Assembly: GCF_001545095.1 (NCBI RefSeq)
Contig: NZ_CP013213.1
Location: 2,040,001-2,072,000, forward strand
Source of the DNA: Erysipelothrix larvae
GTDB lineage: Bacteria > Bacillota_I > Bacilli_A > Erysipelotrichales > Erysipelotrichaceae
Direction: 5' to 3'
DNA: 32,000 bases
The notes under the pieces were generated by a model. The model was not told where the DNA came from. It made no database searches and was given only the letters and a program-made list of their open reading frames with translations. The position numbers were made by a program, and so were the translations under genes. The number at the start of each line of letters is the position of its first letter. Position 1 is the stretch's first letter. Positions 1,989 to 24,542 of the stretch are shown in pieces.

Positions 1989-2514
1989 TTCTTTCTTTAA
2001 TTAAATATCCACAAAGTATCAAAGAAGCCCCTATGATTATGAGATATTCCCAGTGTTTGGATTGATGTCCCGTATTGGCGAGTTTTTCGCCTTTTCGAAC
2101 AATACCAAAGGTAAAGCGATACGTCTCAGATAAGGTCTGAATGACATTTCCTGTGCCTGGATAGATACTAAAATCCACATTAAAATCATAGGTTTCATTG
2201 ATGTTCAATCGTGTTATTAATTGATTTACCTCAAGTCCTGAGACATCAAGGGCTTCAGAGCTTTGAGGTAACTTTAGTGTCATACTTTGTGTTAATGCAT
2301 TATCATTCATCGATTTCACACTTATGAGATAAATATCCACTACTTCATGTGTTGTATTGTTAAATGAATAAGTAAATGTTGATGACATTCCTGGATGAAC
2401 ATCATCAACACTTATCTCTATGACAGTATTTTTTTGATTGATTAATGCATCATTGATATCAATCACTGAAACAGGTGTTGACAAACATATTAATGTTGCC
2501 AAGAGCCATTTCAT
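1957..2514 (-). CDS. Small secreted protein with a C-terminal LPXTG-like sorting signal (LANTG + hydrophobic segment + charged tail)
   Basis: N-terminal signal-like segment MKWLLATLICLSTPVSV. The C-terminus reads GEKLANTGHQSKHWEYLIIIGASLILCGYLIKERSEDDEEKSIQ. The body is beta-rich and has a PGM/NNT segment (VDDVHPGMSSTFTYSFNNTTHEVVDIYL) reminiscent of the PGD...N.G strand pair in TasA-family proteins. Its 3' end overlaps the sipW start. Confidence 0.6.
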   Translation of the reverse strand: MKWLLATLICLSTPVSVIDINDALINQKNTVIEISVDDVHPGMSSTFTYSFNNTTHEVVDIYLISVKSMNDNALTQSMTLKLPQSSEALDVSGLEVNQLITRLNINETYDFNVDFSIYPGTGNVIQTLSETYRFTFGIVRKGEKLANTGHQSKHWEYLIIIGASLILCGYLIKERSEDDEEKSIQ

Positions 2515-2516
2515 AA

Positions 2517-3179
2517 TTACGGAGTTTTAATACTGGTTGTTTCGATATTTTGCCATCCTGCATTTGTTGGAAGTCTTCCCTCGTTATTATTACGAAGTTG
2601 TAGCGCTTCTGTAATGAATGTAAAATCAATCGCCTTATCTTGTGCATCATTCTTAGCTTCTGGTGCAAATAAAATGGTATATACAACAGAATATTCATCT
2701 GAAGGACCATCTATTTCAACTGAACCACTTATTTTATCGATTTTCGATGTATATGCACCATTAGGATCGAAGGTTAAAAGTGTAAGTCCAGATTGGGTAA
2801 AATCTTTGACTTCCCCTTCATACACTTTAACTACTGGTGTCGCAGGTGAACCATATGTAATTTTTGTCAGTTCACCACTAATGGTAAGTCCATTGCGAAT
2901 CCATGCACTTTTTGTCCCGTAATTTTTCATCGTTGCTTTTACGTAAATGACATCCCCTGGGTTAAAGTTTGTAAGTGTGTTTGATGGCAATAGATTACCA
3001 TCTTTATCATATAGCTGATACTTACCATCTATATCAAGTGTACCAGCAGTGATTTTCGCATCTCCCTTAACTTGGTCACTAAAGTAAGCTAATAGTGAGC
3101 CTGCAAAAACAAAGAGTGCTACAATGCTAATTAGAAGCGCTAGGCTTCTTTTTCCGTTATTCTTTTTATTCTCTTTCAT
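2517..3179 (-). CDS. TasA/CalY (camelysin, peptidase M73) family secreted fibre subunit with a SipW-dependent leader
   Basis: The leader ...LLISIVALFVFAGSLLAYFSDQVKGDAKITAGTLDIDG matches the known TasA/CalY pattern (GGTFAYFSD ... AGTLDL). LTNFNPGDVIYVKATMKNYGTKSAW is the typical PGD...N.G strand pair. A strong RBS (GGGAGGGG) lies upstream of the ATG. Confidence 0.85.
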   Translation of the reverse strand: MKENKKNNGKRSLALLISIVALFVFAGSLLAYFSDQVKGDAKITAGTLDIDGKYQLYDKDGNLLPSNTLTNFNPGDVIYVKATMKNYGTKSAWIRNGLTISGELTKITYGSPATPVVKVYEGEVKDFTQSGLTLLTFDPNGAYTSKIDKISGSVEIDGPSDEYSVVYTILFAPEAKNDAQDKAIDFTFITEALQLRNNNEGRLPTNAGWQNIETTSIKTP

Positions 3180-3525: not shown

Positions 3526-5007
3526 TCATTTATTCTTGATATATTCCGCAGCTTTAACACCTGATTGTCTTCCAAATATAATGATATCTGCTACAGCATT
3601 ACCACCAATACGATTATTTCCATGGATACCGCCTACGAGCTCACCGGCTGCATACAATCCAGGGATTGGTGTGTTCGATTGATCCAATACTTCAGTATTT
3701 GCATTCATTTTTACACCACCCATTGTATGGTGAACACCCGGTGCAATTTTTATTGCGAAATATGGTCCAGTACCTAAATCATGATCCATTCCAGTTTTTC
3801 GTCCAAAGTCCGTATCGTTTTGAGAAGCAACTGATTGATTCCACGATTCCAGTGTGGTTGTAAAGCTTTCTTTATCTACATTCATTTTCTCAGCGAGGCC
3901 TTCAAGTGTGTCGGACTCGAGTACAAATCCTGCTTCAACATAGGTATTGATTGCTTTAACGCGGTCTTTAACACCTTGATCAAATACAAGGTACGCAGCG
4001 TGATCATCCAATCCTATAATGGCTTGAGACACAGTATCTCGTGTCTCTAATTCGTTAATAAAACGTTTGCCATCTTGAGCCACTAAGATTGCACCTTCAC
4101 CTCTCACAGCTTCTGTAACCAGATACGATGTTTTTTGTTCAACTGTAGGATGGATTTGGATTTGTTCCATATCTATTGCATAACCACCTACTTTTTCAAT
4201 CATGACAATGCCATCACCCGTTGATCCTTTTTGATTGGTTGTAACAAATCCTTTAAGTGATGGATTGTATTGTGTAACCATATCTGCATTAGCACCAAAA
4301 CCACCTGTTGCCACGATTACTGCTTTTGCTTTGATGGTCTTTGTTTCTGTGCCATTGAAGGTTACTTTGACGCCAACAATCTCATTCCCTTCCTTTACAA
4401 GTTCTGTTACTTCAGCTTGTAAGAAGATAGGTACTTGTCTGCTTTCAACATTCTCTAAAAGTCCTTTGACTAAATATTGTCCCACTGCTGATCCATCTGC
4501 GGGGCGGTGAGTACGTTTCACACTCATTCCCCCAGTCACTGTTAAGTTAGACAATGTGATTCCCATTGAATCCAACCAATCAATAGCACTTGATGAATTA
4601 TCCACAAAGAACCGAAGCAATTCAGGATCGTTTGTGTTTTTCCCACCTTTGAGCGTTTCCTCATAAAACAAATCGTTTGAATCTTCGATTCCCTCATTCT
4701 TTTGGAACTTGGTTTCAGATGCATTCATCCCCGCCGATGACTTAGAAGTATTTCCACCAACAACTGGCATCTTTTCGAAGATGACAGTATCAGCACCTGC
4801 TTCTTTTGCAGCGATTGCAGCGGACATTCCTCCACCACCTGCACCGATTACAATTACATCATATGCGTCTTTTAACGTATCAAGTTTAGCACCTTGAAAT
4901 GAAGTAGCACTCGATTTCTCGTCACTGTCTTTATCCGTGGTATTTGACTTACCACATCCTGTGATAACGAATAGAATCACAGCCAAAATACACATTAATT
5001 TTTTCAT
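3526..5007 (-). CDS. Lipoprotein FAD-dependent reductase of the fumarate reductase / flavocytochrome c / urocanate reductase flavoprotein family
   Basis: Lipobox VITGC at residues 14-18. FAD Rossmann motif DVIVIGAGGGGMSAA. Conserved catalytic segments are IQIHPT, TEAVRGEGAILV and HHTMGGV, plus C-terminal GLYAAGE..GG.HG.NR.GGN. There is no CxxCH heme motif, and only about 30 aa separate the lipobox Cys from the FAD motif. Confidence 0.85.
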   Translation of the reverse strand: MKKLMCILAVILFVITGCGKSNTTDKDSDEKSSATSFQGAKLDTLKDAYDVIVIGAGGGGMSAAIAAKEAGADTVIFEKMPVVGGNTSKSSAGMNASETKFQKNEGIEDSNDLFYEETLKGGKNTNDPELLRFFVDNSSSAIDWLDSMGITLSNLTVTGGMSVKRTHRPADGSAVGQYLVKGLLENVESRQVPIFLQAEVTELVKEGNEIVGVKVTFNGTETKTIKAKAVIVATGGFGANADMVTQYNPSLKGFVTTNQKGSTGDGIVMIEKVGGYAIDMEQIQIHPTVEQKTSYLVTEAVRGEGAILVAQDGKRFINELETRDTVSQAIIGLDDHAAYLVFDQGVKDRVKAINTYVEAGFVLESDTLEGLAEKMNVDKESFTTTLESWNQSVASQNDTDFGRKTGMDHDLGTGPYFAIKIAPGVHHTMGGVKMNANTEVLDQSNTPIPGLYAAGELVGGIHGNNRIGGNAVADIIIFGRQSGVKAAEYIKNK

Positions 5008-6614: not shown

Positions 6615-8981
6615 TCACCGATTCTTATAATAGATATAAAGTGAATAGTTGCTTATTAAGGCTATGAAACCATAGACAATTAGTGATGTTAAGAAGGTCC
6701 CATTAAATATCGAACCATTCCCCATTAGTAGACTATGCAATGATAGTGCTTCAAAAGATTGTATCCCAATAAGTATCATAAGTAATGGAAGGAGTAACAC
6801 AACCCCTGTCATAATAAATACAATAACTATAGACGTAAATTTAGAGGATATCCATAGAATAATGCTGGTTGAAAATATTGCTCCAGAGAGTCTTAAAACC
6901 CAAACTAGAAGCAGGTATTGCCACAGTTTTAGATCCAGTACCCAAGCTGGTATGTTACTTATTTTGAAATCACTTGGTAAGATACTTTGGAACGTACTTT
7001 GCCATGCATCCATGGTATATATCGAAGAGAATGTAAAAAGGTCAACAAGTGATACTATGATAACTGCTCCGAATGCAATGAGATAAGCAAGCTTAATCTT
7101 ACTTTTGAAAAGGGGTAAATTACCCTTTTTCGTGATGGTAGCAATCCCATCTGGGTCTTGTTCATAATCAAATGCAATAATGGGTGATAACACGAGTACT
7201 AGTAAGACAATGAGTAGTAATGCATTTCTAAATTCTCGTGTTTCTGTATTAATAGAAAACAATGCTTGGTATCCATTTGGATAGACGAGTTCTTCTGAAT
7301 TATTCGTTATGTAATGGTCATAGAATTGATTGAAAACCGCCTTATCAACTGAATGTGATAGGTATTCATTTATAAAGTCGTAATATGCTTCTTCTGTAAT
7401 CGTGTGATCTTTGTATGCTTTTGCGTTTAGACTCAATTGTTTATTTAAGTTATCATAAAAATCATATTGCGTATCAATCCACAATATCTTCTCTTCATTG
7501 AGTTCTCCACCATGTTCACGATAAACCTCAACAAGTTTTTCATCAAGTGTCTTGATATTGAGTCCTTGATATATTCCGATATAGATATTTCCCAAATACA
7601 GACCGATTACGAGTACCACAAGCCATCCCTTTTGCATAATGAAACCTTTGTAAGACTCAAATCCAAACCGTTTCAATCTTGGTACAATAGTCGCATGAAG
7701 TTTATCAAATCTTAAATTGATCGAAAGTTGTGGTTTTAATTGCGCATTGCGCAAAACGATAATGCAGATTGTTCCAATAATGCATATAATAATTCCCACT
7801 CCATATATAAAATTAATTTTTGATAAGGAAAAACCCAATGTCTCAATTATTGAATATGATTGGAATAGGTCTCTTGCTTGAATAAGCGCATAAACATTTA
7901 GATACTTGAAAGGAACAAGCATCATGGTATCTTGAATGGTGAAGTATAACCCTGCACTGAATGAAAAAATCAAGAGGAAAGAGAATACCGCTTGTATACG
8001 ATTTGGAATAACTTGATAGAGTAATCCAAACAAAAATGACAACGCCAGCATGCCTACAAATTGCCCAGACACCATCCACATAAACCATCGACCCAAAGAC
8101 ATATTAAAAGAACTATAAGCCAAAGATGGAAAAGATTGGATTGGTGCAAGCCAGTTGATAGAACTAAAAATGAGTTGATTTGTTAGGATAAGCAAGGCAT
8201 AGATGGATATAAAGACCCCCAACAAACTCATTGTCCCTGCAATAAGTTTTGCGATGGTTGTTCTTGTTCTTCCTTTGTTGGTAATCAATAATAGATCATT
8301 CATCTGTGTTGTATGGTCTATTTCAAAAACAGATAAAAAGATAAATATTCCCACAATTATCAGGATTGGCTCAAGATTTGTACCTAAAAGCACATCAACA
8401 CCCTTATGATTCTCAGATGACAAACTCACTCCCCTTAGGTTCTCAAAATATGCACTTTGTTTACTATAGTAGTCCTTTCTTTGTTCAGAGTAGTTTTTCC
8501 AAAAAGGTTGGTTTTCCATGGCTTCAATGACATTGATCGAATCCTCAACAAACCTTGGAAAGTCTTGAATCATTGTATAATAATCAAAGAGTGCTTGATA
8601 GAGCATTAAAGTCTCATTGATATCAAAATCCCTTACAAATGTTTGATAGTCTTGGATAAAACTTTCTGTCATAAATGCATCATTATAGTATTCTTGACGC
8701 ATACTCTCAGCAATATCAGGAAGTGCTATATAAGTTTCATAATCAATATATAGATTAAGCGTCTCTATTTCATGCGCTATTTCCTGTGTAGCGACATCTA
8801 TTTCCAAAGAATCATAGTTGTCCTTTAATTCCGAATATGCCGAAATATTTACCGAGTCTTTCTCTAAACTTGTCTTTGATATATACATCATTCCTACTGA
8901 AAGAAAGAGCGAAATCAATAAGACTCCCCTAATGAAACGCTGTGACCACAGCTTTTTTAGCTCCTCATATATTAGCATCAT
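6615..8981 (-). CDS. Cassette A: giant ABC-2-type permease, internally duplicated (two TM1 / soluble loop / multi-TM halves)
   Basis: Likely start is MMLIYEELKKLW at 8981. The track ORF extends to 9050, but 8981 gives a 17-nt out-of-frame overlap with the ATPase stop. Each half has one TM, then an acidic/aromatic helical loop (about 170 aa in the first half, about 130 aa in the second), then a cluster of about 5-6 TMs. It pairs with the adjacent ABC ATPase. Confidence 0.8.
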   Translation of the reverse strand: MMLIYEELKKLWSQRFIRGVLLISLFLSVGMMYISKTSLEKDSVNISAYSELKDNYDSLEIDVATQEIAHEIETLNLYIDYETYIALPDIAESMRQEYYNDAFMTESFIQDYQTFVRDFDINETLMLYQALFDYYTMIQDFPRFVEDSINVIEAMENQPFWKNYSEQRKDYYSKQSAYFENLRGVSLSSENHKGVDVLLGTNLEPILIIVGIFIFLSVFEIDHTTQMNDLLLITNKGRTRTTIAKLIAGTMSLLGVFISIYALLILTNQLIFSSINWLAPIQSFPSLAYSSFNMSLGRWFMWMVSGQFVGMLALSFLFGLLYQVIPNRIQAVFSFLLIFSFSAGLYFTIQDTMMLVPFKYLNVYALIQARDLFQSYSIIETLGFSLSKINFIYGVGIIICIIGTICIIVLRNAQLKPQLSINLRFDKLHATIVPRLKRFGFESYKGFIMQKGWLVVLVIGLYLGNIYIGIYQGLNIKTLDEKLVEVYREHGGELNEEKILWIDTQYDFYDNLNKQLSLNAKAYKDHTITEEAYYDFINEYLSHSVDKAVFNQFYDHYITNNSEELVYPNGYQALFSINTETREFRNALLLIVLLVLVLSPIIAFDYEQDPDGIATITKKGNLPLFKSKIKLAYLIAFGAVIIVSLVDLFTFSSIYTMDAWQSTFQSILPSDFKISNIPAWVLDLKLWQYLLLVWVLRLSGAIFSTSIILWISSKFTSIVIVFIMTGVVLLLPLLMILIGIQSFEALSLHSLLMGNGSIFNGTFLTSLIVYGFIALISNYSLYIYYKNR

Positions 8982-9831
8982 AATCCACCATATAGTATAG
9001 ATATGCGTCTTCAAAAGTAGGTGTTTTATCCCCTTGTGCTGTTTCATCAATATAGCGAATCAAATACTTGGATTCGTATTTGTATACTCTTGAAACGCGG
9101 TATTGACTTTGATAATTTGGTAACTCATGGACTTCAATAAACTTTTCTACAACCTTGCCTTTCAATGTCTCTAAAAGTTCAAAGCCTGTACCTTCAAACA
9201 CAATATTCCCTTTATTAAGTAAAATAACTTTGTCTGCAATGGACTCAATATCTTGCATGACATGGGTTGCGATTAATACAATACGATTTTCTGCAATTTC
9301 ACTGATATAATTTCTTAACCGAATCCGTTCAAATGGGTCAAGTCCTGCGGTTGGCTCATCAAGAATGATGATCTTCGGATCACCCAATAAGGATTGCGCA
9401 AACATCAAGCGCTGTCTCATGCCACCTGAATAGGTCTTAATCTTCCGGTTAATACTTTCTTCAAGTCCAACTTGCTTAACCAAGGCATTGACTTGTATTG
9501 TCGCTTCTTGTTTTGAAATTCCCTTTAGGTTCGCCATATAATACATGAAAGCGAGTCCCGAGTAATTACCATAACCTTTTTGATTTTGTGGCATAAGTCC
9601 AATTAAAGAACGATACGATTCCTTTATATCCCAAATATGTTTGTCACCATAAGAAATAACACCTGATGTAGCTTTATCAAGTGTCGCAATGAGCCGAATC
9701 AACGTACTCTTACCAGCACCATTGGGCCCAATTAACCCATATATACCTGGCTTCATGGTAAAAGAAACATCTTTTAGTGCCTGAACTTCTTTAAATTTCT
9801 TTGACACATTTGTTAGATTTAGAAGTTCCAT
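8965..9831 (-). CDS. Cassette A: ABC transporter ATP-binding protein (ABC-2/DrrA-NatA-like)
   Basis: Walker A GPNGAGKST, signature YSGGMRQR, Walker B IIILDEPTAGLD, H-loop ATHV, and a C-terminal extension of about 60 aa. Confidence 0.9.
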   Translation of the reverse strand: MELLNLTNVSKKFKEVQALKDVSFTMKPGIYGLIGPNGAGKSTLIRLIATLDKATSGVISYGDKHIWDIKESYRSLIGLMPQNQKGYGNYSGLAFMYYMANLKGISKQEATIQVNALVKQVGLEESINRKIKTYSGGMRQRLMFAQSLLGDPKIIILDEPTAGLDPFERIRLRNYISEIAENRIVLIATHVMQDIESIADKVILLNKGNIVFEGTGFELLETLKGKVVEKFIEVHELPNYQSQYRVSRVYKYESKYLIRYIDETAQGDKTPTFEDAYLYYMVDYDANI

Positions 9832-9832
9832 A

Positions 9833-10963
9833 TTAGTGACTCAATAAGCCCCAAGGCCAACTTGCGATAATTTCTGCTTCACCAAATGTATTGTTTTGGA
9901 TTGGTATTCTTATAAACTCCATATAATCTTGCCCATATCGATACGCATAGTAATAATCATCAGCTACTATTTGCACAAACCCAACGAGTCTGAGGTCTTC
10001 TTTTTCTGTATATGTCGACAAGATATTTCCTTCAATATCATAAAGGAAAATATCTTCAGGCTCATCAGCTAAATTCCCAATCACAAAGTAATCTTTTTGC
10101 ATGATAACACTGCCTGTTGCTGGTTTTATGTACACTGTTTCTTTGATACTGGAATTATAGAGATTCATTGAATTGGTTGCTTCAACGTAGGTTACATATT
10201 TATCATTCTCCTTTTGATAAGGGGATAGATTTTCATCGATGAGTGATAACTGATTGTCTTCTGTATTCAACGAAATAATTGCATTACTACTAGTCTTGTC
10301 TTCATCAGTGAATGTTGTGGCATTCAAAAATACTTCATTACCGGAGGCCGATATAAGTCGAAGACCTGTTCCGCCTTCTATTTCCTCAAGACTCCAGTCA
10401 CTCATATCAATACGGTTGACTTTAGTGCCGCCATATGTGTAATAAACATAACCCCTATGATAAATCATAGTGAATGATGATTCATCAGGTTTACGTTCAG
10501 ATAGTACCGCAACTTGCCTCCTGTTGTTACCATCCAAATCCATTTGCATTAGTACTTCTGATATGATTCCAGCATCATTAACACTATCACTAACGTAATA
10601 TAAATAGCCATTATAATAGTTTAGTTGATAGTAATCGGTTTCTGAAAATGAAGTACATGATTCTGGTGACTGAAACGAACATTTCGCATCGCCACTAGCG
10701 TCAACAATTGAAAATTGATTAGTCTTTTTATCAACATAACCCAACATGAAAGTATTATTGATTTGCACAAAATCCGTGTTTAAAATTTCAAAGTAAATAC
10801 CCTCTTCACTTTCGGTGGCAGATCTCATCGCTGCAAAAGAACCACTTAATTGGTTTATATTATAATCATAACCCCAAATTGTGGGGTCAATTGGCTTTTC
10901 TTCTGTTTTACTACACCCAGTAAGCAATAAAAATGCAACGAGCACACTTGTTTTTATTTTCAT
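9833..10963 (-). CDS. Cassette A: lipoprotein with DUF5050-like beta-propeller repeats
   Basis: Probable start is MKIKTSVLVAFLLLTGCSK (ATG 10963, RBS AAGGAGAAG; the track ORF starts 12 codons earlier). Lipobox LLTGC. Repeated aromatic blades are present: YYNGYLYYVSD, HRGYVYYTYG, DIFLYDI, DYYYAYRYG. Confidence 0.8.
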   Translation of the reverse strand: MKIKTSVLVAFLLLTGCSKTEEKPIDPTIWGYDYNINQLSGSFAAMRSATESEEGIYFEILNTDFVQINNTFMLGYVDKKTNQFSIVDASGDAKCSFQSPESCTSFSETDYYQLNYYNGYLYYVSDSVNDAGIISEVLMQMDLDGNNRRQVAVLSERKPDESSFTMIYHRGYVYYTYGGTKVNRIDMSDWSLEEIEGGTGLRLISASGNEVFLNATTFTDEDKTSSNAIISLNTEDNQLSLIDENLSPYQKENDKYVTYVEATNSMNLYNSSIKETVYIKPATGSVIMQKDYFVIGNLADEPEDIFLYDIEGNILSTYTEKEDLRLVGFVQIVADDYYYAYRYGQDYMEFIRIPIQNNTFGEAEIIASWPWGLLSH

Positions 10964-11038
10964 AGAGCACTTCTCCTTATCAAAGTATCTAGTTAACAAG
11001 GGACTATAGCTGTTTTTGTTAGTTAGTTTACAGATTAA

Positions 11039-11395
11039 TTAATAACTTTTATCCAGGACTCGCCTGATATTTCCATAAGAAAATTCACCTTTAACACGTG
11101 CGATTTTATAACCAGAAGTGAATGTTATCATCGTATACTCAAAACCGTCCCCTGCACTATTGTCTGATGCTGTACGCTGTAACATAGTTGAGCCCTTATA
11201 TGCCCATGTGGTTTGAATTACTATCAATGCAGTACTTAGACTATTTGACTTTATGGATGCAGTTGCAGTAGTGTCGTTTACTTTGTTAATCAAATATTCG
11301 TATGTATCAGTTGCAGCACTTACACTTTGTGAAAGAAATAGAAAAACTGTTAACGAAAGAATTGTTCCAAGTAATTTCTTTTTAGTTTTGCTCAT
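11039..11395 (-). CDS. Cassette A: small Sec-secreted beta-rich protein of unknown family (about 91 aa mature)
   Basis: MSKTKKKLLGTILSLTVFLFLSQSVSA|ATDTYEY..., with a predicted AXA cleavage site. The mature part is rich in S/T/G/Y and contains no Cys. It is the first gene of the cassette. The track starts one codon earlier, at a TTG. Confidence 0.7.
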   Translation of the reverse strand: MSKTKKKLLGTILSLTVFLFLSQSVSAATDTYEYLINKVNDTTATASIKSNSLSTALIVIQTTWAYKGSTMLQRTASDNSAGDGFEYTMITFTSGYKIARVKGEFSYGNIRRVLDKSY

Positions 11396-11606
11396 CAAAA
11401 TTGTACCCTTATGCTATGGTTCCTAAAACTATTATACTTAATCTTCCAAAAAATATGTAGTACTATCACGCTATTTTTTAAGTGGTTTGTATTTATTTTA
11501 CTTAATTTCAACAGATTTCACATATCAAGGTGAATAATTAGTAATTTTGCTCTATATTAACGGTATAATAATGAACTAAATATACTTCAATAAATAATAT
11601 ATGTTT

Positions 11607-11700
11607 GAATATTAAACTTTATATGGGGTTTTGACAGCCAACACAATTACTATGGGAGAGACAGTTTCTCTCTAAACTCCCTCTTTAAAGTGTTTGGTTT
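11607..11700 (+). mobile_element. Solo, degenerate copy of the left end of the ISL3-like element found at 17494
   Basis: GAATATTAAACTTTATATGGGGTTTTGAC... at 11607 versus GGATATTAAACTTTACTTGGGGTTTTCAC... at 17494. Similarity continues for about 95 bp (roughly 70% by eye) as far as ...CTTTAAAG.GTTTGG. I found no matching right end nearby. Confidence 0.55.
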
Positions 11701-11993
11701 ATCTTATTTTCAAAGGCATAAATGAAAGAAAAAATGCCGTAGCGAGCTGAGATTCAATCAGCATTTACAAATAAAGTGTGGCACTATTTGCGAAAAAAAT
11801 TTTTAATATTACGATTATCTTTGAAGTGACAATCAACAGTTCAATGGATACATTGGTAAACATTTAAAAGCGTTGAATAAAGCATATTCACACATATTCT
11901 GCTACCTATAAATCCTTACTTTCTAAGAATTCAATTTCTCCATAAATCCATTATTCTCGTTTCAATCAATATTGAACAAAATATTTTAAACTG

Positions 11994-12836
11994 TCAGCCT
12001 AACAAATCAATGTACACATCATCAAGGGTTGTCTGGACTTGTCTCTCATGTAAAAGTTTTGAAATAAAGCGAATCTTTAAACCGTTTGATGTAGCCATTG
12101 CGCTCACAAACTTCGCAGAATCATCCTCATTTTTGATTGACTCAAAGGATTCATACGATTCAAAAACATTTGTATCATTAATCAGTGCTTCTTGATTCTT
12201 TATCGACAGAATTTGTCCATCTTTCATCACAATAATCTGGTCTGCAATCATTTCAACATCCGAGATAACATGCGTTGCAAGAATAACAATGCGATCTGTC
12301 GCTACTTCCGCGATAACCTTTCTTAAATTTAACCGTTGAACGGGGTCAAGGCCTGCTGTCGGCTCATCCAATAATAATATCTTGGGATCATTAAGCAGTG
12401 CTTGGGCAATGAGGACCCGCTGCTTCATACCACCTGATAATTGATCCAAAGATTTATGTTTAATCGTTTCTAAATCAGTGCGTTTCATGATGGTGTTTAC
12501 GTTCTCTGAAATCACGTTTCGCTTAATCCCTTTCATTGTACTCATATAAATCAAAAAAGACTCCACTGTGAGATTAGGGATTAGCGATTGTTGTTGTGGC
12601 ATATAGCCAATCATCTTTCGATAGTCATCACCCAATTGATGAATGCTTTTTCCATGATATAAAACGTCCCCTTCATAGCCCAAGGTTGTGCTTAAAATAT
12701 TAATAAGGGTCGATTTCCCAGCACCATTGTGTCCCAATAAAGCATACACACCCTCATCTAACGATAAACTAATCTTATTCAGCGCTATGGTTTCTCCATA
12801 GCGTTTTGTTATGTTTTTAAGCTCAAGAATACTCAT
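11994..12836 (-). CDS. Cassette B: ABC transporter ATP-binding protein, paralog of 8965-9831
   Basis: Walker A GHNGAGKST, signature LSGGMKQR, Walker B ILLLDEPTAGLD, H-loop ATHV. It aligns along its full length with the cassette A ATPase (roughly 40-45% identity by eye). Its start overlaps the permease stop by 4 nt. Confidence 0.9.
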   Translation of the reverse strand: MSILELKNITKRYGETIALNKISLSLDEGVYALLGHNGAGKSTLINILSTTLGYEGDVLYHGKSIHQLGDDYRKMIGYMPQQQSLIPNLTVESFLIYMSTMKGIKRNVISENVNTIMKRTDLETIKHKSLDQLSGGMKQRVLIAQALLNDPKILLLDEPTAGLDPVQRLNLRKVIAEVATDRIVILATHVISDVEMIADQIIVMKDGQILSIKNQEALINDTNVFESYESFESIKNEDDSAKFVSAMATSNGLKIRFISKLLHERQVQTTLDDVYIDLLG

Positions 12837-14905
12837 GATATTAACCCTCTTTTCACATTCATACCAATACCACCAATGACCAAACTCATATAACCTACCG
12901 CAACCACAGGATGTTCTAATATAGCCGTTGTAAGCACCATAAGTGGTGAGTATTCAGGGAAGAGTGTAAACAACCCCATCACCACAATAACAACAAATAT
13001 CATGCCAAATAATGCCTTTAATCCGCTTGTTTGTCGGGCAAGTCGATAACTACTCAAAACAATCAATCCATACACCAAGGCCCTAATTAACAGTGTACAC
13101 ACCATGTACACTGCAAGTGAAACATCCAAGGACAGGTCAGTGTCAAGAATTAGACTCATTGGATAGTTCACAGTAAACAAATTATAGTATTTTAAGATCT
13201 TCGCAATATATATTCCATAAACACCAATACAGAGCACCCCACCAATCCCCAACAACAACTGGAGGTCGATCTTCTTCTTTTGTTTTCGACCTAAAAGAGT
13301 ACTATCAAAAAGTGCATCAATCTTTGATGTCTTCGTTGGATTCACAAACATAAACACAAGACTCATCAGTGCTAAAGAAAGGGTTATAAAATGAATCTGC
13401 ATGCTAAACAAGGACTCTCTACCAAAAAGCTGTTCGTACCCTTGTATATTTGAATAGTAGGCCTCCCCATTTATTAGTACTTGTTCGATTTCATCGCGTA
13501 TCATGACAAGGGTACTGAGGTTGTTTGCTTTCTCGATGAGTTCACTATTATTGGTTTCATCACAATCCATTGTATTATCAATACAGGCATTGAGTTTGTC
13601 GCGCGCTTCTTGAGCGTCAAGGATGCGCACGTTCAAAGCTTCCAAAACATCCGCATCAACAATCCCCAGATACTCAGCACGCATAGCATCCACGTTTGCT
13701 TGTTCTGCATCTTCTAAGATGGTATAGCTCATATAGCGATACCCATTGTATCCAATTAAGATTACACAGATTAAAAATGCTTTATAAAGGATTCCCATTT
13801 GGAAGAATTCTTGAAGGGCAAGTGATTTAAACCTAAAGGAAAGTTTAAGGTCAAACTGCTTAAAGCCAATTCGATTGATATTTCGATACATTCCCCAAGA
13901 TAAAATGCTAACACAAACAGTAAGAACACACAGTGCAACAATTTGCAGTGTAGCAAGTTGAAACCCTAGTCCCAAAACAATCGAAATATTAAAGCTTGGC
14001 ATTGATCCAATAAGATAAGCATACACATTAATATATTTGAGAACACTGTAACCCGATGTAATTGAGATAAAGCTATGCATTAAGTACTGAACTAATGTCA
14101 TCAAAATAAATACAAACAATGCCAGTGCATCATTTCTAAAAATGTGAATAAATATGATTAGAATGGAACCAATGAAAAGCATACTCAGAATACCAAGACT
14201 TGAAATCATAATGAGATAAGACAAACAATTTAGATAATAAGGGAACCGGTTGAATCCTGAAATAAATTGAATCGGAACATATAATGACAACCCCATTAAC
14301 TTAAGTGTACCCACTGTAATAAGAAGCATACCCACTCTAAACAAAACAACACTAACTAATAATGCCAGTATCTTAGAAATATATAGGTGCTTCAACGATG
14401 TATGCGTACTCTCAAAAAGACGCAAAATCTTTATTTGAACATCCTGATAGAAAAGCGCTTGTACACACATAATTACAAAAATAAATGACAGGATTGAAAA
14501 AATAGGAGAGCGCAATACAACCGATGGAACATAGGTATTTTCCACATTCAATTCGAGTGTGTTCAATGTTTGATAATATTGAATTTCCTTCTTAAACCTC
14601 ACTAAATTATCTTTTGAATTAAAAAGCGATGACTGTATTTTCTTCTGATTGTTTTCAATGATTTCGTTATTATATTGCGTAAAGTTTTGAATCGTCTCAA
14701 TTTGATTTTTAAGATATGAACTACTGAGTGCTTCAGTGGAAAGATTCCCTTGAAGATACTGATTCCGTTGTGTTATATAACTTTGGTTTTCATCACTATA
14801 AAATGTACCCACCAAAAAAACCAGGAGTACCAGCATCAGTATCATGACCCCTGGAAGAATACCACGATAAGATTTAAGACGCTTTAGCTCTTGATTTAAC
14901 ATCAT
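12833..14905 (-). CDS. Cassette B: giant internally duplicated ABC-2-type permease, paralog of 6615-8981
   Basis: 690 aa. The plan is MMLNQELKRLKSYRG + TM, a loop of about 95 aa, a TM cluster, then a second TM, a helical acidic loop of about 120 aa and a second TM cluster. The N-terminal motif (ELK+L) and overall plan match cassette A. Confidence 0.8.
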   Translation of the reverse strand: MMLNQELKRLKSYRGILPGVMILMLVLLVFLVGTFYSDENQSYITQRNQYLQGNLSTEALSSSYLKNQIETIQNFTQYNNEIIENNQKKIQSSLFNSKDNLVRFKKEIQYYQTLNTLELNVENTYVPSVVLRSPIFSILSFIFVIMCVQALFYQDVQIKILRLFESTHTSLKHLYISKILALLVSVVLFRVGMLLITVGTLKLMGLSLYVPIQFISGFNRFPYYLNCLSYLIMISSLGILSMLFIGSILIIFIHIFRNDALALFVFILMTLVQYLMHSFISITSGYSVLKYINVYAYLIGSMPSFNISIVLGLGFQLATLQIVALCVLTVCVSILSWGMYRNINRIGFKQFDLKLSFRFKSLALQEFFQMGILYKAFLICVILIGYNGYRYMSYTILEDAEQANVDAMRAEYLGIVDADVLEALNVRILDAQEARDKLNACIDNTMDCDETNNSELIEKANNLSTLVMIRDEIEQVLINGEAYYSNIQGYEQLFGRESLFSMQIHFITLSLALMSLVFMFVNPTKTSKIDALFDSTLLGRKQKKKIDLQLLLGIGGVLCIGVYGIYIAKILKYYNLFTVNYPMSLILDTDLSLDVSLAVYMVCTLLIRALVYGLIVLSSYRLARQTSGLKALFGMIFVVIVVMGLFTLFPEYSPLMVLTTAILEHPVVAVGYMSLVIGGIGMNVKRGLIS

Positions 14906-14910
14906 GAATC

Positions 14911-16035
14911 CTAATTATCAAGTGCGTTGAGATAAGAAGAGGTTGCGATCTTAGTCCACTCACCTGTTTTATAGTTTACTGTATAATATCCCAAGCCATC
15001 ATTCTTGTCATTTGCGACAACAACCAGCGTGTCTTTAAACACACCGATGATTCCAGACACTTCAACCTTACTGCCGTTTAGGTCCAAAGAATTCGAAGGG
15101 ACAAATGACTCACTTGCCTCCACTTCATAGACAAGTGTTCCATCATAATCATACACTTGAAATTTCAACGGAGATTCTGCACTTGTAGCATAAATATACT
15201 GATCATCAATATATTCCATCACTGTATGTTCAAAAGTGGTTCTAACATCACCCGCTTCATTCACAACATGTGCTAATATTTTATCGGCTTGGATTTCATA
15301 ATAAATAAAATTGGAATCATAAGAACTTGCTAAAAAATAGTCTGGAGCCGATATTACATTTTCCAATGAATAATCATCAAAGGAAAAAGCATACAATGTA
15401 CTAACATTCGTTGATTGATTATACATATTAAGATATAAACCATCTTGTGAAGGAACATAACGAAGGAAACGTTGTCCTTCAGGTTCGATAATTTGTGTTT
15501 TCTCCTTCGAATTTAGGTTTACCACAAATACTTCCTGGGTAAAAGTATCAACATAAAATAGGTGACCATAGGTAATAAACATCTTATCAGGGACCGTGTC
15601 AAAAGTATAAACAACTTCTTTATTTAACCCTTCAGAATCAAGGCGATTAAGCATTAAGCCATTTTCCCCTTCAATCGTTCCATAGTATGAAATATAATAG
15701 AGCGACCCACCATAGCATTGAAAGTATTCCCCATCCATGATATCAAAATACTTCTCATACTCTAGCTCATAATCCTGAGAAACACTGACGACTTCATCAT
15801 CGATATAGTTCAAATCCGCTAATTTTAAAGACTCTTGCATCGCATCATCGTACACATAAAGTGTTCCAGAATCAATGTAATAAATTGCGTCATCTGTTGC
15901 TGAAATGCTAATTTTTGAAATATTAGTATTCATCCCAGTAAACATCTGATTTGCAGGAATGCTCTCGTCAATTTTAGTGGATGTTTGCGTACATCCAGCC
16001 AACAATAAAAGTCCAATCAACAAACCTTTCTTCAT
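14911..16035 (-). CDS. Cassette B: lipoprotein with DUF5050-like beta-propeller repeats, paralog of 9833-10963
   Basis: Lipobox LLLAGC. Blade motifs DAIYYIDSGTLYVYD, CYGGSLYYISYYG, YGHLFYVD, NFIYYEI, QYIYATS. The core YxxxYxG(Y/S)LYY(V/I)S ... L(D/M)xxG is shared with the cassette A lipoprotein. Confidence 0.8.
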   Translation of the reverse strand: MKKGLLIGLLLLAGCTQTSTKIDESIPANQMFTGMNTNISKISISATDDAIYYIDSGTLYVYDDAMQESLKLADLNYIDDEVVSVSQDYELEYEKYFDIMDGEYFQCYGGSLYYISYYGTIEGENGLMLNRLDSEGLNKEVVYTFDTVPDKMFITYGHLFYVDTFTQEVFVVNLNSKEKTQIIEPEGQRFLRYVPSQDGLYLNMYNQSTNVSTLYAFSFDDYSLENVISAPDYFLASSYDSNFIYYEIQADKILAHVVNEAGDVRTTFEHTVMEYIDDQYIYATSAESPLKFQVYDYDGTLVYEVEASESFVPSNSLDLNGSKVEVSGIIGVFKDTLVVVANDKNDGLGYYTVNYKTGEWTKIATSSYLNALDN

Positions 16036-16249
16036 ATATTCTTCTTCTCCCTCTTCCGTGGCTTACCAAGACTAATAAATAATATTGTGTTTTAATTTTC
16101 TTTCATCAGTCTTAATAACTTTTACATTCAAGACTAGTAAATTTGATTTTACCTGTAAAAAATACGGCAACTAATCAAGCTTAATACGCTTTTGTGCACA
16201 TCACTAGTGGAGCGGATTCCCTAGTGATATTTTTTACAACAAAAAGAAT

Positions 16250-16654
16250 TTATTGACCGGGTGCTGTAACAGTTCCTGAACCGAGCGTGCTCAAAGTTTT
16301 ACCCTGATAAGTCACAGTTCCTCTTGAAGAAGCACTAGAAATAGCGTAATTCTTAAATTGACAATAAACTCTAACATATGCTCCACCCATACCACTGGAA
16401 CTGCCTGACGAATCGAATGATTGATACCCTATAGTCTCAGTAATATACGTCGTTATTTGACCGTTATACTTTGTATCATTAGCAATTGACCCATCAACTG
16501 ATTTTCTATCACTGACCATTGAAACTCTTACGGTCATATAAGAATCAGTCTTTGACAATGCTGATATGTTTGTTGAAAACAAAATAAGTGTAAGTCCAAG
16601 CAATAAAATCGCAGTAAATATTTTCCTTCCATTATTTTTTGTAGCTCTAATCAT
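16250..16654 (-). CDS. Cassette B: small Sec-secreted beta-rich protein of unknown family (about 102 aa mature)
   Basis: MIRATKNNGRKIFTAILLLGLTLILFSTNISA|LSKTDSY... is a signal peptide. The mature part is S/T/G/Y-rich with a single Cys. It shares with the cassette A protein an N-terminal TD(T/S)Y, a Ser/Gly-rich stretch before an aromatic strand, and a C-terminal G.(F/V).Y.G segment. Confidence 0.7.
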   Translation of the reverse strand: MIRATKNNGRKIFTAILLLGLTLILFSTNISALSKTDSYMTVRVSMVSDRKSVDGSIANDTKYNGQITTYITETIGYQSFDSSGSSSGMGGAYVRVYCQFKNYAISSASSRGTVTYQGKTLSTLGSGTVTAPGQ

Positions 16655-20026: not shown

Positions 20027-20066
20027 TTCTCAAAATCTTCTCAGAAGACTTTTGGGTACAAAAAAA

Positions 20067-20129
20067 TCCACTAAATAGTGGACAATGGGGTCAACTTAGC
20101 ATAAGCTTGGTTGACTCCTTTTCTTTTGT
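20067..20129. repeat. Left terminal inverted repeat of the IS1634-like element
   Basis: It is the reverse complement of 24391-24453, read directly from the sequence. Confidence 0.85.
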
Positions 20130-20139
20130 TCTTTATAAT
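20111..20139 (+). promoter_or_regulatory. Near-consensus sigma-70-type promoter reading inward from the left IR (TTGACT - 17 nt - TATAAT)
   Basis: TTGACT at 20111-20116, a 17-nt spacer, and TATAAT at 20134-20139. The -35 box lies inside the IR. Confidence 0.45.
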
Positions 20140-20145
20140 GACGGT

Positions 20146-20414
20146 TTCAATTATTCGGACAATTAAGTAATGCTTAGCAATGTATAAATCAAGCGTCATT
20201 AAAACAACTTTCGCTATATGGTTACGCAAATTTTGTGTTACAATTTAATTGTCTTAACTACACTATTGTCGTACCGTTCTCAGTCCGTAGTGAGTTCTTC
20301 GGACCTTCGGATGATTTCTACCATCTATTCTAAACCGATAGAATGGAGGAGATTTCATAAAGCGACCATAGCGTTCATAGTGTCTATCTCTCCTGATAGG
20401 CACTATATTTTTTA
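20146..20414 (+). ncRNA. Candidate IS-internal non-coding transcript of about 265 nt (promoter-to-terminator unit, convergent with the transposase)
   Basis: It is bounded by the promoter above and by an intrinsic terminator at 20379-20414 (AGTGTCTATC-TCTCCT-GATAGGCACT + ATATTTTTTA). The only ORFs here lack an RBS and run through the terminator. The GC-richer segment 20270-20400 contains several short hairpins. Confidence 0.3.
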
Positions 20415-20464
20415 TAGCAATTTCGGTGATTAAGGACACTGCCTCAAAAATGATTTTAACATTG

Positions 20465-21148
20465 TCAAATATCACCCCCCTTTACCAAGGTTCCTTCATA
20501 CATCAGATCTTTTAGAGTTACAAATTTTGTTTTAAATCCATCCACGTGATTTTGGGTTCTTTTATTGTGTAATTCTGCATTCAGTTCTGCTTCAATGATA
20601 CCTAAAATATTCAAAGCAATAATGCGTGCAAGAATTTTACATTTGTAAACATCAGGACAAGTTGTATTGAATCGCTCAGCTTCTAATTCGGACTTATAAT
20701 ATTTAAAATGTGTTTCAATTTTCCAACGATCTGAATATAGTTCAGCAACTTCTTTATGCGAGAACTCGGCTTGACTCAAATTTGTGAAATAGATATGGTG
20801 TGTTTCGTCTTTTTTACTGGAATTTTTCAATTCATATTTCACCACACGTATTCTAATGCGAGGATTCGATTCAAATGAATCACGCACTTCTTCGTGTTTA
20901 AGTCTTCTTTGCCACTGTTTATTGACTGTAATATCAATCCATCCATCTTTCTCAATTTTAGCTACTTCCTCTTTGAAAAAGTTCGTTTTCCCTCGTATAC
21001 AATACTTGCATCCATTCAGTTCAAGGAATCTGAACAGTTCAACACTACCATAATACCGATCCGTAATATAAATTGATTTGTGGTTGCGAATCAAATCAAT
21101 TGACTTATACAGGTTTTCATATCCTAGCTTGATTTCTGATGTGTTTCG
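20465..21148 (-). pseudogene. C-terminal half of the IS4/IS1634-like transposase (interrupted gene)
   Basis: ...RNTSEIKLGYENLYKSIDLIRNHKSIYITDRYYGS (second D) ... ELYSDRWKIETHFKYYKSEL (YREK/E region). The reading frame continues upstream to the IS21 left end at 21148/21149. Confidence 0.8.
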
Positions 21149-21266
21149 TGCGCTGTATTTGTTAATCTAAAAGTGGGCCAATTCTCAATTGAAAACTGGT
21201 CCACTATTTTTATAACTTCAGAAGTGTGTGATAATGCTTTTGGAGGTGAAAGAGGTGATATCACAA

Positions 21267-22715
21267 ATGAGCAAATATTCAATTATCACATTAAAAAAGA
21301 AAGGATGGTCCAACAGAAAGATTGCCCTTGAATTGGGTATAGACCGAAAGACGGTCGCACGGTATCTTCAGGAATATAATAAATGTCAAATACAATTGAT
21401 TGATAATCATGATTTATCAGACGAAAGAAAAGTAGAAGTCATTGATCAAATTGTTGGGGACCGTCACTATGATGCAAGCAAACGAGGTAAGCGCAAGTTA
21501 ACGCAAGAAATTCAAGCACGCATCATTGAAATTATGGATTCAGAAAAAGATAAAGATATGTTACTAGGAAGACATCATAAGCAAAAGTTAACAGTCACTC
21601 AAATATTTGAAATTATCAAAAGCGAGGGACATGATATTGGTCAGACAACCATACGAAATTTTGTGCATGAAATTCAAGCTTCACGAGAAACATTTATTCG
21701 ACAAGATTATCGATATGGTGAGCGGTTAGAGTTTGACTTTGGAGAAGTAAAGCTTTTAATTAATGGTGAACTAAGAACATATTATCTCGCTGTTTTCTCA
21801 TCACCAGCAAGCGGATATCGGTATGCATATTTATATCCAAACCAACGCAAACAAGTATTCATAGATGCACATGTTCGCTTCTTTGAGCATTCTAAAGGCT
21901 CTTGGGGTGAAGTTGTATATGACAATATGAGAAACGTCGTGAAGCGCTTTATAACGCCTTATGAAAAAGAAATTAATGATGATTGCCTCAAACTGGCACT
22001 CTATTATAATTTTGAAATTAACCTGACTAATATACGAAGTGGTCATGAAAAAGGAAGTGTAGAAAACAGTGTTAAGGTAATTCGAAATCGTGTATTCGCA
22101 AAGGACTATAAGTTTGAAACATTTGAAGAGGCATGTGTTCATCTTGAACAGACTCTTGATGAAATCAATATAAAGAGTTCAATCGAAGATGAAAAGAAAG
22201 AACTTCAACCTTACAGAATTCCTTATGAATTCGCTGATATCGAAGTATATAGTGTTGACAAGTATGGTTGTATACACGTTGAAAATAATTTTTATTCAGT
22301 CCCAGACTATCTCCAACACAAAAGAGTTACGGTCAAAAACACCGTAAATTCGATACGCATCTATTCAAATCACACATTTGTGTACGAACATAAAAAGATA
22401 GATGGTCACCATCAATATCAGCTTGTGTTGGACCACTATCTGAATACAATGATGACTAAGCCGGGATCCGTAAAGAATTCACTTGTCCTAAAACAACATC
22501 CTGAGCTTTATAACATCTACCATAATCATTATAAAACAAGAACTAAAGAGTTCATAGAAATTCTTCAAGAAAACAGGAATGAAACGTATAAAACGCTCAA
22601 AGATGCTTTAAAGTATCGGTTGGTTTCAAATACAATTGACACCGTTGAGTATGATGACAGCATACAAGAACAATCACGTAAACAACTTAAGAAAATAAGC
22701 CAATTAATGCATTAG
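21267..22715 (+). CDS. istA: IS21 family transposase IstA
   Basis: N-terminal HTH (GWSNRKIALELGIDRKTVARYL). DDE core (LEFDFGE..., VYDNMRNVV, GHEKGSVEN). The start is chosen at MSKYSIITL, which has an AGAGGTG RBS; the track ORF begins 13 codons earlier, at 21228. Confidence 0.9.
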   Translation: MSKYSIITLKKKGWSNRKIALELGIDRKTVARYLQEYNKCQIQLIDNHDLSDERKVEVIDQIVGDRHYDASKRGKRKLTQEIQARIIEIMDSEKDKDMLLGRHHKQKLTVTQIFEIIKSEGHDIGQTTIRNFVHEIQASRETFIRQDYRYGERLEFDFGEVKLLINGELRTYYLAVFSSPASGYRYAYLYPNQRKQVFIDAHVRFFEHSKGSWGEVVYDNMRNVVKRFITPYEKEINDDCLKLALYYNFEINLTNIRSGHEKGSVENSVKVIRNRVFAKDYKFETFEEACVHLEQTLDEINIKSSIEDEKKELQPYRIPYEFADIEVYSVDKYGCIHVENNFYSVPDYLQHKRVTVKNTVNSIRIYSNHTFVYEHKKIDGHHQYQLVLDHYLNTMMTKPGSVKNSLVLKQHPELYNIYHNHYKTRTKEFIEILQENRNETYKTLKDALKYRLVSNTIDTVEYDDSIQEQSRKQLKKISQLMH

Positions 22716-22726
22716 GAGAAAAATTA

Positions 22727-23473: not shown

Positions 23474-23540
23474 CAAACGGTAGTGGACCAGTTTTCAATT
23501 GAGATTTGGACCATTATTCAGTTGACAAATACATGCGCCA

Positions 23541-24263: not shown

Positions 24264-24390
24264 AACAAAACCCTCCTTTTCTTAACTACATTATATATCT
24301 ATAAGCAATTAAATTAAAGGTTATATTACATTTATTCTTAACTACATTTATATCTTTTGATATTACATTTATTGGAAATATTCTTTGAAA

Positions 24391-24453: not shown

Positions 24454-24465
24454 CTTGATGTCGAA

Positions 24466-24541: not shown

Positions 24542-24542
24542 A

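Follow-up and report, generated by a model that had tools for sequence, protein, structure and literature searches.

What is achieved by a locus that encodes a small secreted protein, a surface lipoprotein, an ATP-binding cassette (ABC) ATPase and a very large permease side by side, and does so twice in succession? Such a locus lies within a 32,000-nt window of the Erysipelothrix larvae chromosome (the window being the whole stretch of DNA that was analysed), where all eight genes are found on the minus strand as two four-gene cassettes, referred to here as A and B. The E. larvae cassettes belong to a gene module that is widespread among Firmicutes but uncharacterised, and within which the two diverged long ago. 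The conserved unit of this module is three genes, lipoprotein, ATPase and permease, and the small gene is facultative.

The gene module in Erysipelothrix larvae and in other genomes

The initial annotation had described two four-gene cassettes on the minus strand, and ORF (open reading frame) calling confirmed eight intact ORFs at these positions. Cassette A consists of small secreted protein A (11039-11398), lipoprotein A (9833-10963), ATPase A (8965-9831) and permease A (6615-8981), and cassette B of small secreted protein B (16250-16654), lipoprotein B (14911-16035), permease B (12833-14905) and ATPase B (11994-12836). The small gene is therefore the first in the operon in both, and the order of cassette A, ATPase then permease, is reversed in cassette B. 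All eight ORFs have ribosome-binding sites, with translational coupling via 4-17 nt overlaps (4 nt between the start of ATPase B and the stop of permease B), and the genes within the cassettes overlap or lie a few bases apart except behind the small genes, where gaps of 75 nt in A and 214 nt in B are present. Neither cassette holds a regulator or a substrate-binding protein, and this, together with the swapped ATPase/permease order and the location in an island rich in insertion sequences (IS), agrees with what had been noted at the outset. The identical locus is present in an independently assembled Logan assembly (L001); permease A is AOC36_09270, and lipoprotein B is 100% identical to AOC36_09300 of E. 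larvae.

Is such an arrangement confined to this one island? The sample comprised 14 distinct cassettes, including both E. larvae copies, from Erysipelotrichia, Lachnospiraceae and metagenomes, and one locus search gave three genome loci and two metagenome loci. Lipoprotein, ATPase and fused permease genes are adjacent in 14/14 cassettes, and a small Sec-type gene stands at the equivalent position in half of them (7/14: E. larvae A and B, L005, L007, L009, where it is interrupted, L012 and L015). A heuristic search of the adjoining 2 kb for small ORFs of Sec type bears out where the small gene was called present or absent. Of the co-occurrence of four components that had been put forward as a check on the module, the part concerning lipoprotein, ATPase and permease thus holds throughout the sample, but the part concerning the small gene holds for half of it. 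Since the small Sec gene recurs in 7/14 cassettes, including those of distant Clostridia, the idea of a four-component system does not reflect an accident of E. larvae. The family is not confined to the E. larvae island but widespread.

The gene content of the sampled cassettes takes several forms. A small gene followed by lipoprotein, ATPase and permease is seen in L007 (119 aa), which adjoins genes of a type IV secretion system/integrative and conjugative element (T4SS/ICE), in L012 (122 aa), which adjoins AbiEii, and in the metagenomic L015/L016 (115 aa). In a Cuneatibacter metagenome-assembled genome (MAG; L005) the series is two lipoproteins, a small protein of 136 aa, permease and ATPase, and in the metagenomic L009 it is small gene, lipoprotein, permease and ATPase. 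Lipoprotein, ATPase and permease without a small gene are found in Breznakia blatticola (L004), in L006, near spo0A and xerD, and in the metagenomic L002/L010, whose permease is 41% identical to permease A and which has no small gene within 2.1 kb. An Erysipelothrix sp. MAG (L003/L011/L014) likewise has no small gene and carries two diverged cassettes in tandem (L011 1-8349). The second of these is the ortholog of E. larvae A, with 67% identity between the ATPases, and the first is not the ortholog of E. larvae B; different lineages have thus been paired in tandem more than once. A further form is represented by the metagenomic L008 (1118-8358) and L013 (1135-8373), in which genes for a response regulator, a histidine kinase and a transmembrane (TM)-anchored protein of ~250 aa precede lipoprotein, ATPase and permease. 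The kinase is a HAMP histidine kinase, the TM-anchored protein belongs to no family, and its gene overlaps the end of the kinase gene. These are the two cassettes (2/14) with a two-component system, and both are without the small gene.

The ATPases (288 aa in A, 280 aa in B) allow the cassettes to be placed relative to one another. ATPases A and B are 44% identical (BLASTP, E 2e-64), within the range of about 40-45% first estimated for them. ATPase A is 75% identical to the ATPase of L002, 67% to that of L011 cassette 2, 60% to L012, 59% to L006 and 55% to L004, whereas the identity of ATPase B to the other cassette ATPases in the sample is 36-46% throughout. The old divergence proposed in the initial annotation is borne out by the 60-75% identity of ATPase A to cassettes of other organisms and the 36-46% of ATPase B to all, and cassettes A and B represent different deep lineages of the family and not a recent duplication. 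A recent tandem duplication was rejected on these identities. Within one ATPase subclade, the small gene is present in E. larvae A, L012 and L007 and absent from L002, L011 cassette 2, L006 and L004; it has therefore been gained or lost repeatedly while the core persisted.

Components of the module

Both ATPases match Pfam ABC_tran (2.7e-28 for A, 1.2e-32 for B), and the best NCBIfam matches of both are the DrrA and GldA ABC-2 subfamilies, with E-values of 1e-48 to 1e-54 that lie under the equivalog cut-offs. They therefore are, as initially assigned, of ABC-2 type, and correspond to the DrrA/GldA-type cytoplasmic ATPase of ABC-2/type V exporters. Beyond the designation "ABC-2-type ATPase", the cassettes belong to no curated family. 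A search with PADLOC, which covers anti-phage defence, returned generic ABC/AAA ATPase matches only and none for the small proteins, lipoproteins or permeases; a known anti-phage defence system was rejected because these non-ATPase components have no PADLOC match.

Permease A (788 aa, beginning MMLIYEEL) and permease B (690 aa), in which the first loop domain is shorter, each have 12 TM segments by hydropathy, arranged as 2 x (1 TM + long loop + 5 TM). In permease A the two loop domains, or ectodomains (ECD), span approximately residues 36-200 (ECD1) and 471-585 (ECD2). Both long loops are probably extracytoplasmic by the positive-inside rule, because the N-termini and the linkers between the halves are rich in K/R. 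The paralogy of the two permeases that had been claimed was recovered at 22% identity (BLASTP, E 7e-6), a weak signal that comes mainly from the N-terminal halves. No significant sequence similarity was found between the halves of a permease (best E 0.08-0.6), and the "internal duplication" originally described is therefore architectural: it is seen in the topology and in the predicted structure but not in the sequences of the halves.

Neither permease matched Pfam or NCBIfam (E ≤ 1) or PADLOC, and a word-indexed homolog search, a method that is nearly blind for this cassette family, gave one relative of permease A. Exact database look-ups of ATPase B and of protein P0001 gave no record. A profile built from permease A, its close relative P0004 and permease B was more productive. 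Searched against 1.84 billion representative proteins, it gave 2369 matches at E ≤ 1e-3, of which most were full length (650-825 aa) and 113 had E ≤ 1e-30, and recovered permease B as P0007. When 60 of the relatives were scanned, six matched ABC2_membrane_3, five ABC2_membrane_4 and one ABC2_membrane_2. An AlphaFold2 model of permease A computed from a 60-sequence alignment (pLDDT 90.8, pTM 0.80) is helical throughout, both ectodomains included. Comparison of structures with the PDB by Foldseek gave no significant E-value (0.4 or worse), and the plausible matches are all TM domains of type V (ABC-2) transporters, namely NosY of NosDFY (7o0y_E, prob 0.97, TMt 0.51), PmtD (prob 0.84), ABCG5/8, ABCG25 and ABCA1/3/4/7. 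The permease is thus predicted by the model to be a single chain of two ABC-2 (type V)-like halves, each with a helical ectodomain. Sequence searches of the PDB with permease, lipoprotein and small-protein profiles returned nothing meaningful.

Lipoprotein A (376 aa; lipobox LLTG/C, Cys17) and lipoprotein B (374 aa; LLAG/C, Cys15) both carry the Lgt/Lsp lipobox of bacterial lipoproteins, as had been read from the DNA at first, and the cysteine is invariant in an alignment of 11 family members. The same alignment keeps an "LYY" strand, a "(M/L)DLDGxN" motif and a C-x(6-10)-C-[STN] pair, the last of which is missing from lipoprotein B and from L005; lipoprotein A carries C-x8-C-[ST]-S and LYY...MDLDGxN motifs. 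Lipoprotein A shares 44-46% identity with its L002 counterpart and 38% with that of L011, and scores 140 bits against a profile of more distant family members. How lipoprotein B relates to these is less direct, since it has no significant BLASTP match with lipoprotein A (E 0.9), and its word-indexed homolog search returned itself only. Against a profile of 10 relatives from other organisms it nevertheless scores 30 bits, where the best of 2000 shuffles reaches 6.6. At profile level the two lipoproteins therefore belong to one family, in which B has diverged; the paralogy asserted for them is visible there but not by BLASTP. They had also been called DUF5050-like. Neither E. larvae lipoprotein matches Pfam DUF5050 (PF16472) at E ≤ 1, but one of 11 family members does (3.3e-6) and the UniRef name of lipoprotein B is "DUF5050 domain-containing protein", such that the lipoproteins are probably DUF5050-like, putative beta-propellers. 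A literature search on DUF5050 gave nothing relevant.

The small proteins are the most variable component. Small A is 119 aa long from a TTG start or 118 aa from the ATG at 11395, with a mature part of ~91 aa that is S/T/G/Y-rich and has no Cys. Small B is 134 aa long, its start is preceded by a strong ribosome-binding site (AGGGGA), and its mature part of ~102 aa is S/T/G/Y-rich with one Cys. The cleavage sites, SVSA/A in small A and NISA/L in small B, were read directly from the sequence. Together with a basic N-terminus, a single hydrophobic segment by hydropathy (residues 9-28 in small A, 9-34 in small B) and the lack of any further TM segment, these AxA-type sites are those of Sec (signal peptidase I) substrates, in agreement with the signal peptides first reported. 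The database protein identical to small B is named 'AOC36_11700 (plasmid) [Erysipelothrix larvae]' although that protein was found on a 2.495-Mb contig, and the 'plasmid' label is probably an annotation quirk.

That the two small proteins are paralogs, as was initially proposed, was not borne out: BLASTP gave no alignment between them and the Smith-Waterman shuffle z is 0.2. What they have in common is limited to features of a class (Sec signal, 91-102 aa mature length, at most one Cys). Their S/T/G/Y/N/A share is 54-58% in the mature parts, and it is 54-71% across the small proteins of the cassettes. No match to Pfam or NCBIfam at E ≤ 1 was obtained with either, and a chimera of both mature proteins, searched by the word-indexed method against 5.8 billion proteins, gave self matches only. 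AlphaFold prediction of mature small A from the single sequence was unusable (pLDDT 35).

Comparison among cassettes was more informative. Almost the entire mature length of small A is similar to the L012 small protein (Smith-Waterman shuffle z 5.4, 1/3000; phmmer 2e-5 in a six-sequence set), a similarity that parallels the 60% identity of their ATPases. In further shuffle tests, L012 versus L015 gave 10/3000 and L015 versus L009 16/3000, and a profile of the small proteins of E. larvae A, L012 and L015 finds that of L009 (1/1500) and, weakly, that of L007 (38/1500). For small B the similarity is suggestive (p ~0.05 against the L012 small protein, p ~0.11 against the three-member profile), the relation of the L005 small protein to the others is not significant, and a leave-one-out profile over six small proteins is significant for L012 only. 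The small proteins of the cassettes thus appear, in part, to form one family. Those of L005 (5067-5477) and L007 (3585-3944) weakly match NF053819, the 'EF2685/EF0750 family sortase-dependent surface protein', with E 6.8e-5 and 0.017 (23 and 16 bits, where 47 is the cut-off) over a region that includes the signal peptide; an LPXTG motif is absent from both. In L009 the small gene (4286-4686) has an in-frame TAA after codon 17, within the signal peptide, which reads MKLKKRSLLFSILGASA before the stop and IMFSVSPVMA/STST after it. The interrupted gene is either a pseudogene or the product of an assembly error.

Two intergenic regions accompany these genes. A 595-nt AT-rich spacer (11399-11993, minus strand; ~30% GC), which is non-coding, separates cassettes B and A; it contains no ORF and no Rfam match, and a promoter scan gave weak consensus matches only. 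The promoter region of cassette A presumably lies here. A short GAGAGAAACTGTCTCTC palindrome is also found in this spacer. In the 214-nt gap of cassette B, ~20 nt past the stop of small B, a stable 13-bp hairpin without a U-tract is present (16198-16230, minus strand), and the RNA fold of 16150-16260 has an energy of -27.4 kcal/mol (z -2.4). This hairpin may possibly serve as a partial terminator or mRNA stabiliser.

Possible functions and genomic surroundings

How might such a module work? The small protein has its own Sec signal; therefore the ABC transporter is presumably not its exporter, and a functional link between the two would have to act after export. By analogy with lantibiotic immunity, we hypothesize that the locus pairs a hypervariable secreted effector with a LanI/LanFEG-like protection module of lipoprotein plus ABC transporter, of which orphan modules occur elsewhere, and we favour this tentatively, at somewhat less than an even chance. 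The small protein, exported by Sec independently of the ABC transporter, would act outside the cell as a bacteriocin-like effector. The lipoprotein would bind or sequester it at the surface of the producer, and the ATP-driven permease would expel it from the membrane or envelope, in parallel to LanI and LanFEG. Modules without the small gene would be orphan protection/resistance modules, some of them under two-component control.

Effector plus self-protection fits best because it accounts for a fast-evolving secreted protein and lipoprotein beside a conserved ABC engine, for orphans, for mobile contexts and for occasional two-component control. A small gene that is extremely divergent and patchily present within one ATPase subclade is what would be expected of an effector and its immunity. 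Several of the loci lie on mobile DNA (the IS-rich island in E. larvae, the T4SS/ICE genes beside L007, AbiEii beside L012), the two-component linkage of L008 and L013 is as in regulated immunity/resistance modules, and the small gene heads the operon, with the hairpin behind it in cassette B. There is precedent for a Sec-exported bacteriocin with ABC immunity in lactococcin 972 (Lcn972; PMC4055356) and for lipoprotein plus ABC immunity in LanI/LanFEG (PMC4828448). The effector/immunity function is nonetheless one that we infer. In a more far-reaching form, which we consider possible but rather doubtful, the cassettes would define a new and widespread Gram-positive class of antagonism and self-protection, in which hypervariable, unmodified Sec toxins of ~10 kDa, dissimilar to known bacteriocins, are met by a cognate, specificity-determining propeller lipoprotein that hands the toxin to the fused ABC-2 transporter, and orphan modules are acquired resistance.

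Several observations weigh against an effector. The small proteins A and B are, as far as their sequences allow a comparison, not demonstrably homologous, and in Pfam, NCBIfam, PDB profile and shuffle tests the small proteins show no resemblance to a known family of toxins or bacteriocins. The mature small proteins, at 91-109 aa and weakly cationic, are larger than typical Sec-dependent bacteriocins. Half of the modules, among them L002 as the nearest relative of cassette A, do without the small gene; therefore the core works without the small protein. In addition, the L006 module occupies a housekeeping context near spo0A and xerD.

An alternative hypothesis, unlikely but the most serious of the rivals, takes up this last group of observations: the module would be a generic envelope resistance or detoxification exporter that removes an exogenous membrane-active compound (antimicrobial peptide, polyene or lipid), as B. 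subtilis LnrLMN or BcrAB do, and the small proteins would be unrelated or dispensable. The three-gene core that is complete without the small gene in 7/14 cassettes is consistent with such an exporter, as is the position of L008 and L013 directly behind a response regulator and histidine kinase, a classic arrangement of sensing/resistance ABC systems. The permease halves have an ABC2_membrane_3-type layout, and the ATPases are nearest to drug-resistance proteins of DrrA type. However, chance neighbours would not recur as the small Sec gene does, at the same operon position in 7/14 cassettes across two Firmicute classes and with traces of shared ancestry. A resistance exporter also leaves a dedicated, fast-evolving lipoprotein without an obvious role, and neither E. 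larvae cassette has a regulator.

Alternatively, and in our estimate improbably, ATP hydrolysis could drive the ectodomains and a docked lipoprotein to fold, mature, anchor or release the small protein, without transport of a substrate across the membrane, in an extracytoplasmic machine like NosDFY(L) or LolCDE. The small protein would then be a surface, matrix or adhesion component, and modules without the small gene would serve clients encoded elsewhere. This proposal draws on the structural comparison, in which NosY chains are the most probable matches, but the E-values of 0.4 or worse reflect a generic type V fold that is common to the true exporters PmtCD and ABCG, and no NosD or NosL homologs are found. 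Two large helical ectodomains and an obligatory lipoprotein (14/14) suggest work outside the membrane on a client that carries its own Sec signal. The weak matches of the L005 and L007 small proteins to an enterococcal surface family, below the cut-off, point in the same direction, but anchoring motifs such as LPXTG or a lipobox are absent from the small proteins, and hypervariability is unusual for structural clients.

Could the cassettes simply be chance juxtaposition, or non-functional cargo of an IS island in decay, with small ORFs that are spurious or unrelated? Broken IS and resolvase fragments abound around the cassettes, and the small proteins are orphans among 5.8 billion proteins. 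Eight intact ORFs with ribosome-binding sites, overlaps and coherent signal peptides or lipoboxes, the identical locus in the independent assembly, the gene order kept in distant taxa and the significant relative of small A at the same position in L012 all make this very improbable. Least credible of all is a lactococcin-972-type locus (Lcn972 bacteriocin, 7-TM membrane protein and Lcn972-group ATPase), for which the similar gene logic (PMC4055356), the similar S/T/G/Y/N/A composition and a match of ATPase B to TIGR03608 (1e-34) could be cited but which is contradicted at sequence level, every family test for small proteins, permeases and ATPases having failed.

What follows from the module does not depend on one of these explanations alone. 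The fused permease, the lipoprotein and the small protein have no Pfam/NCBIfam family, yet public genomes and metagenomes contain more than 2,300 representative permease clusters. Among Erysipelotrichia and Clostridia the module is thus an envelope system that is common and has gone without annotation. A locus of "hypothetical proteins" has now become a defined set of genes that varies in nature: some loci carry the small gene, some lack it, and some include a two-component system. Were the small proteins effectors, they would constitute a new family of Sec-dependent protein bacteriocins with a new immunity architecture, of relevance to competition in gut communities and to the mining of narrow-spectrum antimicrobials. 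If they are not, the pairing of a lipoprotein with an ABC-2 transporter bearing helical ectodomains would be an accessible model for type V transporters and their extracellular partners, and a NosDFY-like, ATP-driven machine acting outside the membrane on a secreted client would, if true, be equally novel.

The flanks of the cassettes are rich in IS605 (OrfB fragments), ISL3 with DUF6431, IS4 and IS21 elements and in resolvase fragments. A repeat search of the window revealed no composite-transposon repeats bracketing the cassette pair, and PLSDB plasmids gave no match to the 10-kb region (megablast) or to permease A (tblastn). A nested IS is found at 20064-24456, where an intact IS21 (istA 21228-22715, istB 22727-23473; 53-nt inverted repeats 21154-21206 and 23481-23533) sits inside an IS4-like element with 67-nt inverted repeats (20064-20130 and 24390-24456) and a split transposase (ORFs 20465-21094 and 23495-24076). 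Directly beyond the IS-rich stretch, an array of nine tRNAs (24469-25346, minus strand) was identified with Rfam, whose scan returned tRNAs only; the array is a plausible integration hotspot bordering the accessory region.

At the other end of the window, three successive small ORFs of 175, 185 and 220 aa occupy 1461-3179 (minus strand), the 220-aa ORF matching Peptidase_M73 (camelysin/TasA-like; 2e-05). They may form a TasA/CalY-type secreted fibre locus that is unrelated to the cassettes. Just outside the IS605 remnants, at 3526-5007 (minus strand), is the gene for a lipoprotein of 493 aa whose FAD_binding_2 domain is complete (8e-91). This protein resembles a flavin reductase of fumarate/urocanate reductase type that acts outside the cytoplasm.

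Comparison with known systems

Which known system do the cassettes resemble most? In the initial annotation the lactococcin 972 locus was named as the closest architecture. Its operon, lcn972-orf2-orf3, encodes a Sec-dependent, beta-rich bacteriocin together with a large membrane protein and an ABC ATPase, the latter two being proposed to give immunity (PMC4055356). The likeness lies in the gene for a Sec-exported, S/T/G/Y-rich protein that comes first and is followed by those for a large membrane protein and an ABC ATPase, and in composition, the S/T/G/Y/N/A share of Lcn972 being 58% against 54-71% in the cassette small proteins. However, the lipoprotein that is obligatory in the cassettes is absent from the Lcn972 operon, and the cassette permease has 12 predicted TM segments in what is probably an ABC-2 fold, whereas the Lcn972 membrane protein has 7. 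Small A, small B and the related small proteins do not match the Lcn972 bacteriocin models PF09683/TIGR01653 (E ≤ 1 for A and B). With a profile built from six small proteins, the Lcn972 structure 2LGN is not recovered at E ≤ 10, although 2LGN is in the PDB library, and pairwise shuffle tests of the small proteins against Lcn972 gave z-values of -1.2 to 0.4, none of them significant. Neither permease matches TIGR01654 (bacteriocin-associated integral membrane protein, ~650 aa, 7 TM). For TIGR03608 (Lcn972-group ATPase), ATPase B reaches 119.8 bits (1e-34) against a cut-off of 254.85, below its own GldA/DrrA scores, and the model is not among the top 25 NCBIfam matches of ATPase A. Membership of the Lcn972 family was rejected on the negative outcome of the bacteriocin models, the 2LGN profile, the shuffle tests, TIGR01654 and TIGR03608, and what is left of the first proposal is an analogy.

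NosDFY(L) and PmtCD provide the best structural matches for each permease half, at non-significant Foldseek E-values. NosDFYL couples an ABC-2 transporter to extracytoplasmic partners, a lipoprotein among them, and to a secreted client, and PmtCD expels peptide toxins and so protects the producer. NosY and PmtD differ in being homodimers of ~250-270 aa without helical ectodomains, and homologs of NosD, NosL or phenol-soluble modulins are not found at the E. larvae cassettes. The linearmycin sensing/resistance system of B. subtilis, LnrJK-LnrLMN (YfiJK-LMN), is likewise an ABC-2 system. Each permease half is like LnrM/LnrN by layout alone, with an N-terminal TM segment, an extracytoplasmic domain and five TM segments (ABC2_membrane_3 type), and the variants L008 and L013 adjoin a two-component system as in LnrJK. 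In contrast to LnrLMN, the cassette halves are fused, a dedicated lipoprotein is always present and the E. larvae cassettes have no two-component system. The lipoproteins are like DUF5050 (PF16472) in their repeated hydrophobic-Y-Y strands and 'MDLDGxN' motif; to our knowledge, DUF5050 itself has no known function.

The remaining comparison is with LanI and LanFEG (NisI/NisFEG), the immunity system of lantibiotic producers, which consists of a surface lipoprotein and an ABC transporter (PMC4828448). A surface lipoprotein and an ABC-2-type transporter beside the gene for a secreted (here putative) antimicrobial, two-component control in some cases and orphan modules in non-producers are features common to both. 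The cassette ATPases match the lantibiotic-protection model TIGR03740 with E 1e-41, but their 139-143 bits lie far below its cut-off of 309.75, and neither NCBIfam nor Pfam has a model, of LanFEG/LanI or otherwise, that matches the E. larvae permeases or lipoproteins. The cassette permease is one chain of 690-790 aa with two large helical ectodomains, whereas LanFEG has two proteins of ~250 aa, and the cassette lipoprotein is probably DUF5050-like and is unrelated to LanI. Moreover, the putative cassette effector would be unmodified, Sec-exported and ~10 kDa in size, whereas a lantibiotic is a ribosomal peptide that is modified and leaves the cell by an exporter of its own. Taken together, the cassettes would seem to work most like the known protection modules of lipoprotein plus ABC-2 transporter, and what is new in them is the fused permease architecture, the lipoprotein family and the family or families of secreted partners.

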